Source: Desulfurococcaceae archaeon (GTDB lineage: Archaea; Thermoproteota; Thermoprotei_A; Sulfolobales; Desulfurococcaceae). From it: DNA of 64,000 bases. Positions 2,310-6,849 of this stretch are shown in pieces. The number at the start of each line of letters is the position of its first letter. The first letter of the stretch is position 1. The stretch is taken from contig JAWBAI010000005.1 in NCBI GenBank assembly GCA_038816475.1, positions 1 through 64,000 of the forward strand. The letters run 5' to 3'. A program made the position numbers and the translations under genes. The notes under the pieces are model-generated. The model was not told the DNA's origin. It did no database searches and saw nothing but the letters and a program-made list of their open reading frames with translations.

Positions 2310-3809
2310 CTACATAGCAAATGAAGCAGTAAAGTGCAGTAGTTTCTTGAAAAACCCGTAGTTTCTTCTCAGTTTCTCGCTTAGTTTTAAATTAGGCGTT
2401 TTAATTTCCTTGGTGAACTTTTCTAGTAGAAGAGGAAGCTCGTTCCTCTTTATGGCGTTTAAAGCTAGCATAGCCAGCGTGGAGTTACCAAAGTGCGTTG
2501 CATCAGGTATCTCGGAAAAATGTACGTTCTTCTCCAGGGCACTTGCAAGCATTTCCCTAACTATCGGTATCTGTGTAACCTTACCTCCAGCAACCACGCT
2601 TTCGTAACGAGCACCCGATGCTCCAAGTAGCTCGTCCACGAACCTTAGTAACAGTACTAGTCCTTCAAGCGTCGAGCAGACGAGGAGTGGAACATTTAAA
2701 CCTTCTCTCATACCGGCAATCCAAACACCCGTGCTTTTTGAGAGTTGTGGGTGTCTCTCGGGGTATAGTAGTGGTATAATCAATGGTGTTTGAGCCTCAG
2801 CGTAGTTTTCCGGGGAAACTTCTCTAGCTTTTTCTACAAGCTGTTCAACGGTTAAACCTAGTGTTCCAGCAAGGTACTCCAGTACAATACCGCAGTTGTT
2901 TAAACCGAGCCCCGGTATCCACGTGTTCCGGTATAGATAGTAGGACTGTATGCTCATGGAGCTTTTATCTATAACGGGGCTTGGACTATTGACTCTCAGC
3001 ATGCTACTAGTACCCATGTTTACAACCCCAACGCTCCTCGTTCCGCCCGATAACCCGAATATCATGGATCCACCGTCGAATAGTCCCAGAACTACGCGGG
3101 TTTTCTCGGGTATCCCCATTGTACTTGCGATCCCGGGCTTAACCCATGTTACGTAGTCTCCTTCTTCTAATCTGGGTAACTGTGATTCATCCAATCCTAC
3201 GATCGAGAGCACGTAATCATCCCACTTCAGATTCCAAATGTTCATCAGCTGGTAAGTTCCACTAGCAGTCGAATAATCGGTTACTACCTCTCCCGTAAAG
3301 TAGCTCATGATCAATGATTTAGCGTCTGCTATTAAACTACTACGTACAACCTCAGGGTTCACGCGCAGCATGTAGAGTATCTTAGGCAGAGTGTAGATGT
3401 AGAGAGGTGGACAACCGGTCCTCATGTATATGTCTTCAGCATTCCTAAGTACGTAGTCAAGAGAACTCTCAGATCGCCTATCTAACCAGGTTATAATGTT
3501 GCTCACGAACTTCCCGCTTCTCGTCAATAGAACAGCTGAGAAGAGGTACACAGAGAACACGAGTACATCTGGAACACCTGATGTCCTAACTAGGTGCTTT
3601 ACGAGCTTTACAACCTCACCTAGTACGTAGCTGGGCATGTGCTCGTGAACAAGCCCGTCTGTTACGGCTTGTTGCCTAACGTTCACAGTGCTCAAAGTGA
3701 TCAGGGTTTTATCTTGCTCATTGAACTCCGTATATGCAGCCTTAATGTACGATGTACCAACGTCGATCGACACTATTCTCACATAAAACACCAACCTTGG
3801 TTTCATCAC
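2310..3809 (-). CDS. FGGY-family carbohydrate kinase (gluconokinase/xylulokinase-like); true start probably near 3783
   Basis: SIDVGTSYIKA phosphate motif, ITWLDRRS, TDYSTASGT, NMGTS, LEG and VAGG motifs. Confidence 0.9.
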   Translation of the reverse strand: MMKPRLVFYVRIVSIDVGTSYIKAAYTEFNEQDKTLITLSTVNVRQQAVTDGLVHEHMPSYVLGEVVKLVKHLVRTSGVPDVLVFSVYLFSAVLLTRSGKFVSNIITWLDRRSESSLDYVLRNAEDIYMRTGCPPLYIYTLPKILYMLRVNPEVVRSSLIADAKSLIMSYFTGEVVTDYSTASGTYQLMNIWNLKWDDYVLSIVGLDESQLPRLEEGDYVTWVKPGIASTMGIPEKTRVVLGLFDGGSMIFGLSGGTRSVGVVNMGTSSMLRVNSPSPVIDKSSMSIQSYYLYRNTWIPGLGLNNCGIVLEYLAGTLGLTVEQLVEKAREVSPENYAEAQTPLIIPLLYPERHPQLSKSTGVWIAGMREGLNVPLLVCSTLEGLVLLLRFVDELLGASGARYESVVAGGKVTQIPIVREMLASALEKNVHFSEIPDATHFGNSTLAMLALNAIKRNELPLLLEKFTKEIKTPNLKLSEKLRRNYGFFKKLLHFTASFAM

Positions 3810-3854
3810 TTGTGAGTTAAAACAGCATCGTAAAATACGGTTTTAAGTAGTAAC

Positions 3855-4788
3855 CTATACTGCTTCCTCGAAGATCTTCCTGAGCACTTTGCCAACAGCC
3901 TTCTTTAGGGTTATGCAAGCAGCTGGCTTAGAGGCTCCAATAGCCTTCGAGAAGGCGTCAAGCCCCCCGCTCTTTCTCGGCTGTACAATGTAGCCCGTTA
4001 CATAAGCCTTGTAGAGAACGTGTAGTTCTCGTGGTGTTAACTCAGACAACAGTATGTTGCGCGATGCGGTGATCAAGGCTTGCTCGAAGCATTGCTGAGG
4101 ATCCGTATTCTTTACGTACACGTATTTCTCGCCATAGTATGCTCTAAGGTTATCAAGGTACTTTTCGATGTCGACAGCATACCCGAATACGCAGAATCTT
4201 CGAAACCATTTCCCGCTCTAGGTTTTTGTGGGTTTTCCTAGGGCGGGTCATCACGGTTTCCCTGAGCCCCCTCCCCACGGTCTGCCGTGGGTCTCGGAAA
4301 CCCAGGGTCACCAGGAGCAGTTGTTACTCACCTGGTTTATAAACCTTGCTAAACTTAATCACCTCGAGAACCATAAGCATCCACGAGAAACCCACAAAAA
4401 CCTAGCACACAAAAACAGTTGTCAACCCTCTGTGAATAGTGTATGGGACAACGAGCTTCACGTTGTACGGGGTAAGTAGCTCAAGGAACTCGCAGGAATC
4501 CTTCAAAGCTAAAGCAAAGTAGCTTGTTGAGCTCTTGAACTCCTTCAATGCAATGATCTTTGACTTCTCTTTACCTCTAAGGTTTTTCACAGCTTCACTT
4601 AATGCGTCACTTTGGTTTATACGAGAGTGAAATGCTACGAAGTAAAGTTTGCTTTTCTCGTCTCTATCAACATACAGAACTAGAGGTTCGGCAATGCGCT
4701 TCGAAATACTAGCAAATAAGCTCTCTGGAGAAGCCTTAGCAGTTACAACGTAGCTTTTAATCTTCAAGTAACCACCGGGTACTCCCAT
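3855..4788 (-). pseudogene. HTH-10 (Bat-like C-terminal HTH) transcription regulator interrupted by a 220-bp insertion
   Basis: ORFs 4402-4788 and 3855-4121 are two halves. Deleting 4206-4425 joins ...PYTIHRG to FRRFCVFG... in frame, giving 237 aa. The C-terminus LTPRELHVLYKAYVTGY..PRK...LKKA is typical of HTH-10. Confidence 0.85.
4206..4427 (-). mobile_element. Non-autonomous insertion element (MITE-like), probably derived from the IS607 (or IS200/IS605) family
   Basis: Precise interruption of a gene; AACC at both junctions (4204-4207, 4424-4427); 18-bp subterminal inverted repeat (4218-4235 / 4388-4405); CACAAAAAC direct repeats (4393-4401, 4408-4416); internal GC-rich hairpin; no transposase. 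Confidence 0.8.
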
Positions 4789-4854
4789 TAAAATTTGAAA
4801 AGAACAAGCTCTTAATATGCTTTTAAGTGCTACAATAGTATATCGTGAATTGGT

Positions 4855-4928
4855 GGGCCCGTCGTCTAGCCTGGTAGGACGCCGCCCTCACACGGCGGAG
4901 GTCCGGGGTTCAAATCCCCGCGGGCCCA
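4855..4928 (+). tRNA. tRNA-Val(CAC), intronless, CCA not encoded
   Basis: Acceptor stem GGGCCCG/CGGGCCC; anticodon stem CCGCC/GGCGG with loop CTCACAC (CAC at 4889-4891); T-arm GGTTCAAATCC; discriminator A4928. Confidence 0.97.
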
Positions 4929-5011
4929 CTTCGGGATAAGCACGCACATGAAGTATAAAATCCGCCTGGAGACCGAATAAAAATCACCGGGGCTCGCGAA
5001 GTACTCGTAAA

Positions 5012-5716
5012 CTACTTTCTACGAGTAATTAGGATAACCGCTACTGCTACGATGACTACTGCGATAACCGCTAAAGCGATGTAGAGAAATGGTACTTCGG
5101 CGCGTGGAGGTTGAACAGTGGGTGTAGGTGTTTGTTCTACCTCCTCGAGTGGTATGAGTATCGTGATCATGGATAACCCTATACCTCTAAGCCTTAGAAT
5201 ACCCTGCTCTTCGTATACAGCTTCAACAACTGTACCACCAGATAATGATACCTCGAAGTTCACTGGAATACCGAGTCTCAGCTCAAATACTACGTTACTG
5301 AAGTTTCGTAGAACGGATGTATCCACGGAGAGTGAATAGGTTCCAAGACTCTGCTCTTCGAGAATGTTCGACACGGAGAACAGTAGTTCTACAGTACCCG
5401 GGTAGCAGGCAATAAGATCTACGAGCCCCTGCTCTTCGTCGTAGTTAACACCGAGAACCCTCGTACCAGTGCTAGTGTAGTTCAGGAATTCAACTACGGC
5501 TTGCTCATTCAGTATGTTCACAGGAATATAGTAGGCTAGACAGTTAGTCTCAGTTACGTTCACCTCAACTACAAGAAAACCAGTATCATCCACGATACTG
5601 TAGGATACAATGTAGCTTACTCCTGCAACTTCACTGTATGCTACTGGAGCAACCATAAGTAGTACTACGAGTAGCACAAAAAGCACAGCAGACATGAACA
5701 ACTTCACGTGCTCCAC
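5012..5716 (-). CDS. Secreted, C-terminally anchored hypothetical surface protein
   Basis: N-terminal signal peptide, QTPTPTVQPP linker, C-terminal TM helix followed by TRRK. Confidence 0.8.
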   Translation of the reverse strand: MEHVKLFMSAVLFVLLVVLLMVAPVAYSEVAGVSYIVSYSIVDDTGFLVVEVNVTETNCLAYYIPVNILNEQAVVEFLNYTSTGTRVLGVNYDEEQGLVDLIACYPGTVELLFSVSNILEEQSLGTYSLSVDTSVLRNFSNVVFELRLGIPVNFEVSLSGGTVVEAVYEEQGILRLRGIGLSMITILIPLEEVEQTPTPTVQPPRAEVPFLYIALAVIAVVIVAVAVILITRRK

Positions 5717-5850
5717 CTTTAGTGATCTTACATCGCCATGAGTTTAAAAGGATTTAGTGCTAGAAAGTGTAGCGTAAGCATTCTTCAACGCACTCTTTTT
5801 TCCCGCCACTGTTATAACCCGGGCATCTTGTACTGAACCATGGTGAGTGC

Positions 5851-6849
5851 TTGAAGTGCATTATTCTTGCGCATGGAGATAGTGATGGAGTAGCTTCAGC
5901 ATCCTTGGTTAAGGCGTACTTCGATAATTTGAATTATAGTGTTGAGGTTGTTTTCACACATCCAGCTGGTCTACTGAGTGATTTGAAGGAGTTCGTGAAA
6001 GACCATGAAGTAGTGTTCATTGTCGATGTAGCACTTAATGAACTGCACGCTACGGAAATACTAAATAACCTTAGTACTCTCGCTAATAGAGCTAAAGTAG
6101 TGTACGTGGATCATCATCCACTACCAGAGGACCTCAGACTAACCTTGAACGTAGATGTTGTTTACGATACGTGCTGCTCAGCATCTGAACTCACTTACAG
6201 GTACTTGCACAAAATGGGTCTCGGATCCGATTACGCGAGAATTGCGTTGTACGGTGCTATTGGTGATTACCTCGATGAAACACCATGGGTTAAGCAAGAG
6301 CTTGACAACTGGGATAAAAGGTCAGTGTACCTGGAAGCTGGAATTCTAATACAGGGATTGGAGTGTGCTAGAAGAGATTACGAGTTTAAACGACGCGTTG
6401 TAGAGCATCTCTCTAAAAACAACTTGCCGAGCACGATGACTGAACTCGTTGAAAGAAGCCTTAAGCAGGCTGCTGAAGACGAGAAGCTACGTTTATGGGT
6501 CAAGGAGAACGTTGTAAGTCGCGGCTTAGTAGCCTATGTTCTAAACCCATCGGGTAGCGTGGGTAGAGCTGCAAACTACGCTAGAGTCTACGGAAGAGCG
6601 AAGGTCGGCATTGCCATAGAAGAGCGGAAGGAAATGTACGTTATGAGCTTACGCTCAGAACCCGGCATAGACTTAAACAGAGTACTCAGAATTCTCAGTA
6701 GGGAGCTAGGCGTAAACGGAGGCGGACACCCTCGCGCAGCTGGCGCACGCGTGAAAAAAGAGCTGTTTGAGAGGTTCCTGTCGGAACTGGAAAGACTTGT
6801 TGCGAGCTCGGGATCATCGTTGTCTTCGAAGGTGCACTCTACCTCTTGA
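5851..6849 (+). CDS. DHH/DHHA1 family phosphoesterase (RecJ/NrnA-like)
   Basis: HGDSDG, YVDHH, GAIGD and C-terminal GGGHPRAAGA motifs. Confidence 0.9.
   Translation: MKCIILAHGDSDGVASASLVKAYFDNLNYSVEVVFTHPAGLLSDLKEFVKDHEVVFIVDVALNELHATEILNNLSTLANRAKVVYVDHHPLPEDLRLTLNVDVVYDTCCSASELTYRYLHKMGLGSDYARIALYGAIGDYLDETPWVKQELDNWDKRSVYLEAGILIQGLECARRDYEFKRRVVEHLSKNNLPSTMTELVERSLKQAAEDEKLRLWVKENVVSRGLVAYVLNPSGSVGRAANYARVYGRAKVGIAIEERKEMYVMSLRSEPGIDLNRVLRILSRELGVNGGGHPRAAGARVKKELFERFLSELERLVASSGSSLSSKVHSTS

Follow-up and report, generated by a model that had tools for sequence, protein, structure and literature searches.

The question raised by this locus is what kind of element has inserted itself into a regulator gene, and what the small RNA that it appears to encode might be for. 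The locus lies near one end of the window, by which is meant the whole 64,000-nucleotide stretch of Desulfurococcaceae archaeon DNA analysed here (contig JAWBAI010000005.1, positions 1 to 64,000). The element is 220 bp long and occupies positions 4206..4425; its features are read on the minus strand. An initial annotation of the window had proposed an IS607-like mini-element that might be a stand-alone cassette for the guide RNA (omega RNA) of the nuclease TnpB. Taken as a whole, the evidence is best explained by a protein-free deletion derivative of the IS607 group that carries an omega-RNA-type gene under its own promoter and specifies a guide-type RNA, and we consider this explanation probable.

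Throughout, G000 denotes the assembly under study (1.15 Mb in 18 contigs, 92% complete), other G numbers denote related genomes, and C denotes a contig. The limits of the element are set by an uninterrupted site in the congener G009 (contig C38) and by the four copies of the element in G000 itself. The DNA of G009 matches both flanks and runs across the junction as ...CACAGAGGG|TTTCGAAA... or, in a longer reading, ...ACTATTCACAGAGGG|TTTCGAAAATTCTGCG.... In the window, host CACAGAGGG lies directly upstream of the element (4434-4426, minus strand), and the terminal GG of the element (4207-4206) is followed by host TTTCGAAGA. The junctions are thus ..AGGG|TTGAC.. on the left and ..AATGG|TTTCG.. 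on the right; because GGTT is present at both, the boundary slides by up to 4 nt. Comparison with the G009 site shows no target-site duplication at the insertion. The insertion point, AGGG^TTT, falls within the gene for a regulator of about 237 amino acids. Its N-terminal 121 codons (4426..4788, minus strand) are 89% identical at the amino acid level to the G009:C38 homologue, in which they are contiguous with the C-terminal part; the C-terminal 116 codons and stop (3855..4205, minus strand) carry the HTH_10 DNA-binding domain (Pfam PF04967, 31.6 bits, cut-off 23.1) and are 68% identical. Without the 220 bp the two frames rejoin, four homologues from related genomes have both halves joined at exactly this codon, and intact homologues of 226-247 amino acids are found in G002 and G008. 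A regulator gene of HTH_10 type is inactivated by the element.

The sense orientation of the element and the restoration of the frame on its removal would also suit an intron-like element, spliced from the host mRNA in the manner of IStrons so that the regulator is kept functional. Contigs from two public runs (from two studies) join 4203 to 4424 and skip the 220 bp, and one of the runs with the joined form was guessed to be RNA. However, the search of public sequencing runs listed none with this sequence that is recorded as RNA, both runs are of uncertain kind, and their joints, at 85% likeness, have short sides of 21 and 28 letters, below the 31-letter rule, so that they give no more than a hint, here of close relatives without the insertion. 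In the congener the empty site is seen in a genome assembly, hence as DNA; Rfam gave no match to a group I intron or to any other family of ribozymes, and by inspection the junctions are not complementary as a bulge-helix-bulge requires. Splicing is extremely improbable, and a DNA insertion is the preferred reading; since the insertion is polymorphic among close relatives, the element was recently mobile.

The attribution to IS607 made by the initial annotation is borne out: there is a GG core at both junctions, the empty site is precise and scarless, the target is not duplicated, and the ends are homologous to those of an IS607-type element. A complete element of this type is resident in G000 (C7:71016-72973, 1958 bp) and contains both tnpA and tnpB. 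Its intact TnpA (C7:71040-71714) is a serine recombinase (Resolvase 91.4 bits, HTH_17 55 bits), and its TnpB, of 439 amino acids, matches PF07282 with 63 bits and the NCBIfam model guided_TnpB with 106.2 bits (cut-off 100). The left end of the mini-element is identical to that of this copy at 35 of 45 nt (score 19, the best of 1000 shuffles reaching 14), and the right end at 41 of the 45 terminal nt. A second IS607-type element is split over two contig ends (C12:27840-29492 and C9:1-390); its tnpA (C12:27840-28427) is 44.6% identical to that of C7 and its tnpB 25%. A further tnpA start is seen at C9:63531-63680. The 220 bp themselves hold no tnpA, the serine-recombinase TnpA being present elsewhere in G000, and as judged from its ends the element is a non-autonomous derivative of the IS607 group.

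The left end (4353..4425, minus strand) contains two subterminal repeats of the type GTTTTTGTG (CACAAAAAC on the plus strand), at 4416-4408 and 4401-4393 with a spacing of 15 bp, and BLAST finds the left repeat again at 4235-4218, inverted and perfect over 18 nt. The repeats, the inverted copy and the GG, together with the palindrome, stems and GTGATGA motif discussed below, are all present on the minus strand where the initial annotation had placed them. A classical miniature inverted-repeat transposable element (MITE) was considered and set aside: the only inverted repeat is the subterminal one of 18 nt, and there is no target duplication, so that the term applies only loosely, in the sense of a miniature non-autonomous element.

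The initial annotation proposed a search for further copies and for a full-length tnpA+tnpB parent with the same ends. Besides the C7 element just described, G000 contains three more full copies, making four (C5, C12, C3 and C1), with 82-93% identity and unrelated flanks, and several partial copies of the same ends. Across the related genomes searched, the 220-bp element was matched in 14 of 41, G000 included. The copy in the window has 10 extra bases in a loop (4218-4227 region) between two AAAACC repeats. These are missing from the other three copies in G000, which thereby lose most of the inverted left-end repeat; the difference looks like slippage. The C3 copy (C3:96878-97081; compare L025, G015:C47) and the C1 copy (C1:150043-150254; compare L024, G009:C29) are old insertions, with flanks common to sister species. 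There is also a second type of protein-free mini-element, of 225 bp, at C7:42250-42476 and C11:4771-4994 (L008 and L007; also L015, L032 and L036). It consists of an IS607 left end, with the TATA box of tnpA, fused to the last ~139 nt of tnpB, and at least two fusion junctions are seen (left-end 8-68 to full-length 1836-1977, and left-end 20-55 to 1859-1975).

What the 220 bp contain between their ends is, in all likelihood, an RNA gene. The predicted omega-RNA-type scaffold is about 107 nt long, from GGTGACCC to ...AAATGG (4206..4312, minus strand). A 106-nt segment of it folds with -52.8 kcal/mol, against -34.6 +/- 3.4 for shuffled sequences (z -5.4; none of 200 as good). A covariance model, R1, was built from an alignment of 16 relatives (A2) and searched in 151 genomes of the order. 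It matches 56 of them, in 27 of 58 genera; with 131.1 bits, the window RNA ranks second in this search and first within G000. Matches to an exact pattern were also collected, and 40 of 42 are titled as archaeal (Thermoproteota), from Desulfurococcaceae, Ignisphaera and allies. On 56 homologues, 91.3% of cells are paired, a share that drops to 34-52% in controls with slid partners; in 26 of 29 pairs both sides have changed, and there are 304 compensatory cells, compared with 94.5 +/- 7.8 in shuffles (none of 500 reaching 304), figures against which it must be counted that the alignment was fitted to the model, and so favours its structure, and that the relatives are not independent.

The structure consists of three helices. 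The outer stem (4307-4296 with 4271-4260; 4260..4307, minus strand) pairs CCCTGGGTTTCC with GGGGGCTCAGGG over 11-12 bp, with 96.4% of cells paired, 8 of 11 pairs covarying and 59 compensatory cells. It encloses the inner hairpin, CCCACGG..CCGTGGG (4291-4274), whose stem (4291-4285 with 4280-4274) is 94.0% paired and has changes on both sides in all seven pairs. The terminal hairpin (4247-4237 with 4222-4212; 4212..4247, minus strand) is 84.9% paired, with all 11 pairs changed on both sides, and its loop contains the inverted copy of the left-end repeat. The linker between them carries the conserved motif GTGATGA (4248..4254, minus strand), in which T66, G67 and A68 of alignment A2 are invariant. 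This motif was tried as a C/D box or k-turn and rejected: a search of 4150-4480 with E up to 10 gave no C/D family, and by inspection no CUGA partner is well placed. The nested stem-loop of the initial annotation is thus right in its inner hairpin and less well supported in its outer stem, which pairs GGTTTCC (4302-4296) with GGAAACC (4261-4255) on paper. This alternative is 85.1% paired, with changes on both sides in 3 of 7 pairs and four compensatory cells. The two versions of the outer stem are mutually exclusive, and a switch between them is possible. A helix between CCGT and the final ACGG, suggested by folding of the single sequence, is not kept in divergent copies. The outer stem has three positions at each of which 34-43 sequences show a U-G pair, which on the other strand would be an A-C mismatch; the fold therefore exists on the minus strand only, which favours an RNA over a DNA cruciform.

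The R1 match ends at the terminal GG of the element (4206), and 32 of 46 homologues end in ACGG. R1 also matches the 3' end of the resident C7 tnpB (43.5 bits, E 1.9e-8), the similarity to tnpB 3' ends that the initial annotation had made a test of its reading, and both of the tnpB-derived 225-bp mini-elements on C7 and C11; the right-end region of the second IS607-type element (C12/C9) was not matched. The stems of the tnpB-embedded versions covary within the coding region, and these versions do not have GTGATGA. Read in frame, the window RNA gives DPR...TRPRKT.KNLERE, like the C-terminus of TnpB. Because of this homology, in the model match and in the shared frame, the window RNA belongs to the kind of RNA that is found at the 3' end of tnpB, that is, to the omega RNAs. 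A decayed fifth RNA copy without a recognisable TATA box is present in G000 at C13:16022-16135 (32.2 bits; L094 1523-1636, minus).

The RNA is preceded by a promoter-like region. The TATA box TTTATAAA (4336..4343, minus strand) lies inside the palindrome GGTTTATAAACC (4334-4345), 23 nt before the RNA, with an A/T-rich -10 region downstream of it. For comparison, 46 homologous RNA loci of the non-embedded type were examined. The TATA octamer is matched upstream of the RNA in at least seven of its eight letters in 36 of them, and it starts 28-33 nt before GGTGAC in 32. The A+T content peaks at -30..-25 (0.83-0.91) and at -13..-7 (0.76-0.89), and the spacer between these peaks is without conservation. 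A TATA box and a melted -10 region are the layout of archaeal promoters. The TATA box is kept in all four G000 copies. We predict that the RNA starts at about 4312, on the first G of GGTGACC, and the initial annotation, which had noted a TATA box at promoter distance before a structured RNA ending at the right end, put the start at about 4310. The RNA is likely to be transcribed.

A different view would be that the conserved sequence acts at the level of DNA only, as binding sites for the recombinase, the TATA box being incidental. The position of the inverted left-end repeat in the terminal hairpin loop, and the fact that the last 45 nt are common to the autonomous IS607 copy, would both fit recognition by the transposase. 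However, pairing is kept by covariation 40-105 nt inside the end, with G-U pairs that are possible on one strand only, and the distance from TATA box to RNA is conserved where the sequence of the spacer is not. Hairpins are not required by serine recombinases, whose substrate is double-stranded DNA. We consider a DNA-only role very unlikely, and it is highly likely that the element is, by descent and by design, a stand-alone omega-RNA cassette.

From what was this cassette derived? The initial annotation supposed an internal deletion that removed tnpA and tnpB and placed the left-end promoter directly in front of the scaffold. An internal deletion of a protein gene is supported: positions 1-73 of the mini-element match G100:C5 at 81%, and positions 84-220 at 88%, on either side of a TnpB-like gene of 1.1 kb. 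The nature of the parent has to be revised, since the closest parent elements (G100:C5 and G108:C1) carry a TnpB-like gene for about 375 amino acids on the strand opposite to the RNA, and the RNA has a promoter of its own, 49-92 nt from the start of this gene. The 3' end of the gene adjoins the IS607-type left end, and the RNA adjoins the right end. Positions 113-220 of the mini-element match G108:C1 at 96%, and its left end shares 81% identity, across 69-73 nt, with those of the parents in both G100 and G108. Within this left end is a fossil of the last 14 codons and stop of the deleted gene (4361..4405, plus strand), which reads TSRTISIHEKPTKT* and can be compared with the C-termini ...ATRALGILERPTKT in G100 and ...ASRALNILERPTKT in G108. 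Sequence comparison thus identifies the lost part as a TnpB-like gene in reverse orientation, and the promoter of the mini-element as the RNA's own.

Further parents, of about 1.3 kb, are found in G026:C72 (L091 1986-3268) and G047:C57 (L092 1773-3055), in addition to those in G100:C5 and G108:C1 (L142 and L143). In the parents, gene and RNA have a short promoter region in common, with one near-palindromic TATA box that might serve both directions. Two side observations concern these loci. The G100 parent (L142 ~1400-1468) itself interrupts the tnpA gene of a serine recombinase, at ..TTCGGG|TT.., with a flank like ...VVAYPDRLTRFG, and the transposons are thus nested. Near the G026 parent there is a sub-threshold match to the C/D box small RNA sR55 (L091 4369-4425, plus strand; 31.9 vs 35 bits), which is unrelated to the RNA studied here.

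The family of the 375-amino-acid protein is present in 45 of the 151 genomes, namely in 32 of 56 that are positive for the RNA and 13 of 95 that are negative, tallies that assume the same 151 genomes in each order search and carry no statistic, the relatives not being independent. Beside the 46 RNA loci, the gene is present in 15, absent from 27 (with at least 1300 nt upstream covered), and not judgeable in four. In the 15 paired loci it is divergent from the RNA, which does not overlap its 3' end. The proteins miss the curated model guided_TnpB, with 16-23.4 bits in two of three members scanned and no match in the third (cut-off 100), fall below the Pfam cut-off for PF07282 (17-19 bits vs 26.3), and have no zinc-finger CxxC cysteines in the alignment of the family. 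A protein-database label, PF27229, is attached to the protein. The predicted fold (predicted local distance difference test score 83.3, predicted template-modelling score 0.76) was compared with known structures using Foldseek, which matches Cas12f, Cas12k and TnpB, with 55 matches at E <= 0.001 that include Cas12f1 (7c7l, E 2.2e-9) and TnpB (8h1j, E 4.4e-6). All seven sequences keep D in GxDVN and E in LExP, and six of them keep D in LDxH; by analogy these acidic residues would be the RuvC triad. When PDB sequences were searched with a profile of the family, there were 0 matches at E up to 1, and the kinship with Cas12f and TnpB is therefore drawn solely from the comparison of folds.

We propose the following mechanism. 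The deletion derivative retains the left end, the right end and, between both, a complete small-RNA gene with an archaeal TATA promoter. Its RNA would start at about 4312 (GGUGACCC) and run through the outer stem, the inner hairpin and the terminal hairpin. The scaffold would stop at the right-end GG, and transcription into the flank would therefore append a host-derived guide, UUUCGAAGAUUCUGCG.... Judged from TnpB biology, and with an assumed length of 20 nt, this would-be guide is the host flank at 4186..4205 (minus strand), which starts TTTCGAAGATTCTGCG.... The empty site places AGGG directly before the would-be guide sequence. Excision would rejoin AGGG|TTTCGAAG..., and so set a motif resembling a target-adjacent motif (TAM) beside the match to the guide; in the window, the corresponding host AGGG, which includes the GG core and may serve as TAM-like motif or target, adjoins the left end (4426..4429, minus strand). 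The copy borne by the element has ATGG, not AGGG, and would thus follow the same self/non-self logic as TGGG vs TCGG in CboIS607. Movement would be provided in trans by a serine-recombinase TnpA, for example the intact one at C7:71040-71714. The native partner of the RNA would be the zinc-finger-less TnpB/Cas12f-like nuclease of about 375 amino acids, which is divergently encoded beside the RNA in the parents of other genomes; in G000 the candidate users would be only the 439-amino-acid TnpB of C7 and the second TnpB, cut by contig ends.

The flanks of other copies can be set beside this proposal. Of 13 elements with a placeable left end, 12 have GG directly 5' of it and 10 have GGG; the left flanks are mostly AGGG and the right ends of the elements ...A(C/T)GG. 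In the accessible text of the study of CboIS607, an IStron with TnpA(S) and TnpB (bioRxiv 10.1101/2023.11.20.567912), the element likewise has a GG core and leaves a scarless donor joint. There, the TAM TGGG is also the target of the transposase and the scaffold ends in ..TCGG, so that self and non-self differ at position -3, as AGGG and A(C/T)GG do here. As described there, the bacterial CboIS607 differs in carrying tnpA, tnpB and a group I intron, with an omega RNA that overlaps the 3' end of tnpB, whereas the window element contains neither gene nor intron. On the host side of the right end, T is the first base after the terminal GG in 41 of 46 RNA loci, and left ends also mostly start with T; because of this, the recombination core or target preference may be GGT rather than GG. 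Farther out, a tRNA gene (Rfam tRNA, 64.4 bits) lies at 4855-4928 on the plus strand, 67 bp upstream of the split regulator gene and on the opposite strand to it.

How far does this mechanism operate in the organism? Loading of the RNA into some nuclease of the TnpB family, the family being taken as a whole, is reasonably likely. Its use as a guide in G000 is possible, on balance doubtful, and unproven, because the cognate 375-amino-acid protein was not found in the 92%-complete assembly. Several observations weigh against the mechanism proposed here. Neither tblastn nor single-protein and profile searches found the 375-amino-acid family in G000, an assembly in which mobile elements lie at contig ends. 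Among the RNA-positive genomes, 24 of 56 are without this family, and five of these are also without a match to a TnpB of the C7 type. The C7 TnpB has an RNA of its own, which shares the architecture and the last 45 nt with the window RNA and differs in sequence over the 5' two thirds, and because of this difference the use of the window RNA by this protein is a guess. Some copies in G000 have changes that break stems (an A-C mismatch in C1, a C-A mismatch in C12). In sister species, the orthologue of the C3 copy (G015:C47) is without ~55 nt that include the TATA box, and the orthologue of the C1 copy (G009:C29) has a disrupted 3' half of the RNA. No Rfam family matches the window element (E up to 1 over 3000-6000; E up to 10 over 4150-4480).

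Some of these points are what would be expected if the element had the same descent and were now an inert relic, with an RNA that has no partner nuclease and is idle in G000, the copy persisting only because it is young. The failure to find the cognate nuclease in the assembly, the loss of the promoter or of part of the RNA from older orthologous copies, and the excess of protein-free over paired loci (27 vs 15 of 46) all point this way. However, in a set of seven protein-free copies drawn from four genomes, the RNA has a mean identity of 90%, where the left end reaches 77% and the promoter spacer 68%. The TATA box, as noted, is retained in every G000 copy, the window copy has the best model score of the genome, and the assembly is incomplete. 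We judge an inert relic to be unlikely, while taking it seriously, and prefer a cassette that still specifies a guide-type RNA.

Other crenarchaeal RNAs suggest a different role again. The accessible text of Maertens et al. (2013; PMC3674436) describes four small RNAs of S. solfataricus, RNA-257 1-4, which are intergenic and transcribed, have consensus-like promoters, and are homologous to the distal portion of the coding sequence in a transposon gene that lies beside a resolvase gene (the distal orfB of ISC1904, which has a resolvase and orfB). They destabilise an mRNA whose 3' untranslated region overlaps a copy of the transposon. By this description they resemble the window RNA in being stand-alone crenarchaeal RNAs from the omega-RNA region of an IS607-type element; they differ in being read as antisense regulators that arose when a promoter was made by point changes, and the accessible text mentions neither transposon ends nor mobility nor a link to a nuclease for them. 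The window RNA could similarly be a transposon-derived riboregulator, driven by its promoter and pairing with mRNAs that bear complementary transposon sequence, for which the RNA-257 paralogues are a precedent and with which the several partial copies of the same ends in G000 would be in keeping. A complementary host transcript was not found here, no search aimed at one having been made. Nevertheless, the covariation of three helices and the coincidence of the RNA 3' end with the end of the transposon fit a protein-bound scaffold better, and at 15 of the 46 loci a TnpB-like gene is physically joined to the RNA. Riboregulation has little probability, and we retain the omega-RNA reading.

The idea of a protein-free RNA-guided parasite, as the initial annotation put it, holds in outline and is not new in kind: protein-free guide-RNA elements are already known, and published precedents exist for other families (the accessible portions of PMC10691335, PMC10055086 and PMC3674436). 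Mobilised stand-alone omega RNAs without effector or transposase are described, and were shown to work in trans with a compatible nuclease, in the available text of PMC10691335, which summarises a Science study of 2021. Palindrome-associated transposable elements (PATEs) often carry genes for omega RNAs, and these RNAs have to be used in trans, according to that of PMC10055086. As presented in these sources, the stand-alone omega RNAs and PATEs of IS200/IS605 are like the window element in having no nuclease or transposase and in keeping ends and guide scaffold. They are bacterial, with the ends of a Y1 (HUH) transposase and hairpin-guided single-strand transposition; in contrast, the window element has the ends of IS607 (serine recombinase, GG core), an archaeal host, and a dedicated TATA promoter that comes from a parent whose RNA gene and nuclease gene do not overlap. 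SMN1 of S. islandicus, of 320 bp, is described as a MITE that depends on ISC1733 (accessible text of PMC3718332). Compared by that description only, it is like the window element a short, protein-free crenarchaeal element that is mobilised in trans by a resident transposase; no RNA is mentioned for it in that text. ISC1733 is, we presume, of the resolvase+orfB type.

The RNA may also have a relative among the families of Rfam. In G075, the same RNA is matched by Sso133 (RF02814, Sulfolobus sRNA133), a family that presumably comes from a transcriptome study of Sulfolobus, with 37.3 bits, below the gathering score of 44. The model is only 73 nt long, and the match covers the 5' two thirds of the RNA, that is, the outer stem and inner hairpin; Sso133 thus corresponds to the 5' part of this RNA in other families of the order, and gives a precedent for its expression in relatives. 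Sso133 is found above threshold in 14 of the 151 genomes and in 0 of 18 of the window's family, and it matches neither the window (E up to 10) nor G000. A homologue of the 375-amino-acid gene lies upstream, on the opposite strand, in five of 11 of the best Sso133 loci examined. In Sso133 loci (L093 1598-1665; L151-L162) the transcript seems to be longer, with a TATA box ~65-70 nt upstream of the start of the model and an extra 5' stem. A full-text search found no literature on the function of Sso133. Full-text searches, in which the Greek letter omega is poorly matched, likewise found no IS607-derived archaeal omega-RNA mini-element and no divergently encoded guide of a TnpB. Relative to this searchable literature, the layout of the parent, with a separate and divergent guide gene beside a zinc-finger-less TnpB-like gene, is new, as are its wide spread among Desulfurococcaceae, Ignisphaera and allies and the link to Sso133.

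On the basis of these observations, we hypothesise that the window element is a guide-only offshoot of a TnpB lineage, for which we found no earlier description, that consists of the zinc-finger-less protein of about 375 amino acids, with a Cas12f/TnpB fold, and a separate guide gene that has its own, possibly bidirectional, TATA promoter, is transcribed away from the gene for the protein and ends at an IS607-type right end; we give this wider proposal close to, though a little short of, an even chance. If it is true, the excess of RNA-only copies over paired ones would follow from the uncoupling of RNA and protein, as would the spread of these copies among hot-spring archaea (Desulfurococcaceae, Ignisphaera and allies). 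In Sulfolobaceae the guide would be represented by the orphan family Sso133, which so gains a testable function, and the layout would stand naturally midway between free-standing guide loci and those omega RNAs of transposons that overlap a gene. A pipeline that seeks omega RNAs at tnpB 3' ends only would overlook the guide that belongs to this compact, zinc-finger-less nuclease of thermophiles, and the layout would be useful for guide prediction. If the RNA is a working guide, then two ends, a promoter and a guide RNA are all that a transposon need keep, with transposase and nuclease borrowed from other elements, and such reduction would have occurred in hyperthermophilic archaea and among elements of the IS607 (serine recombinase) type.

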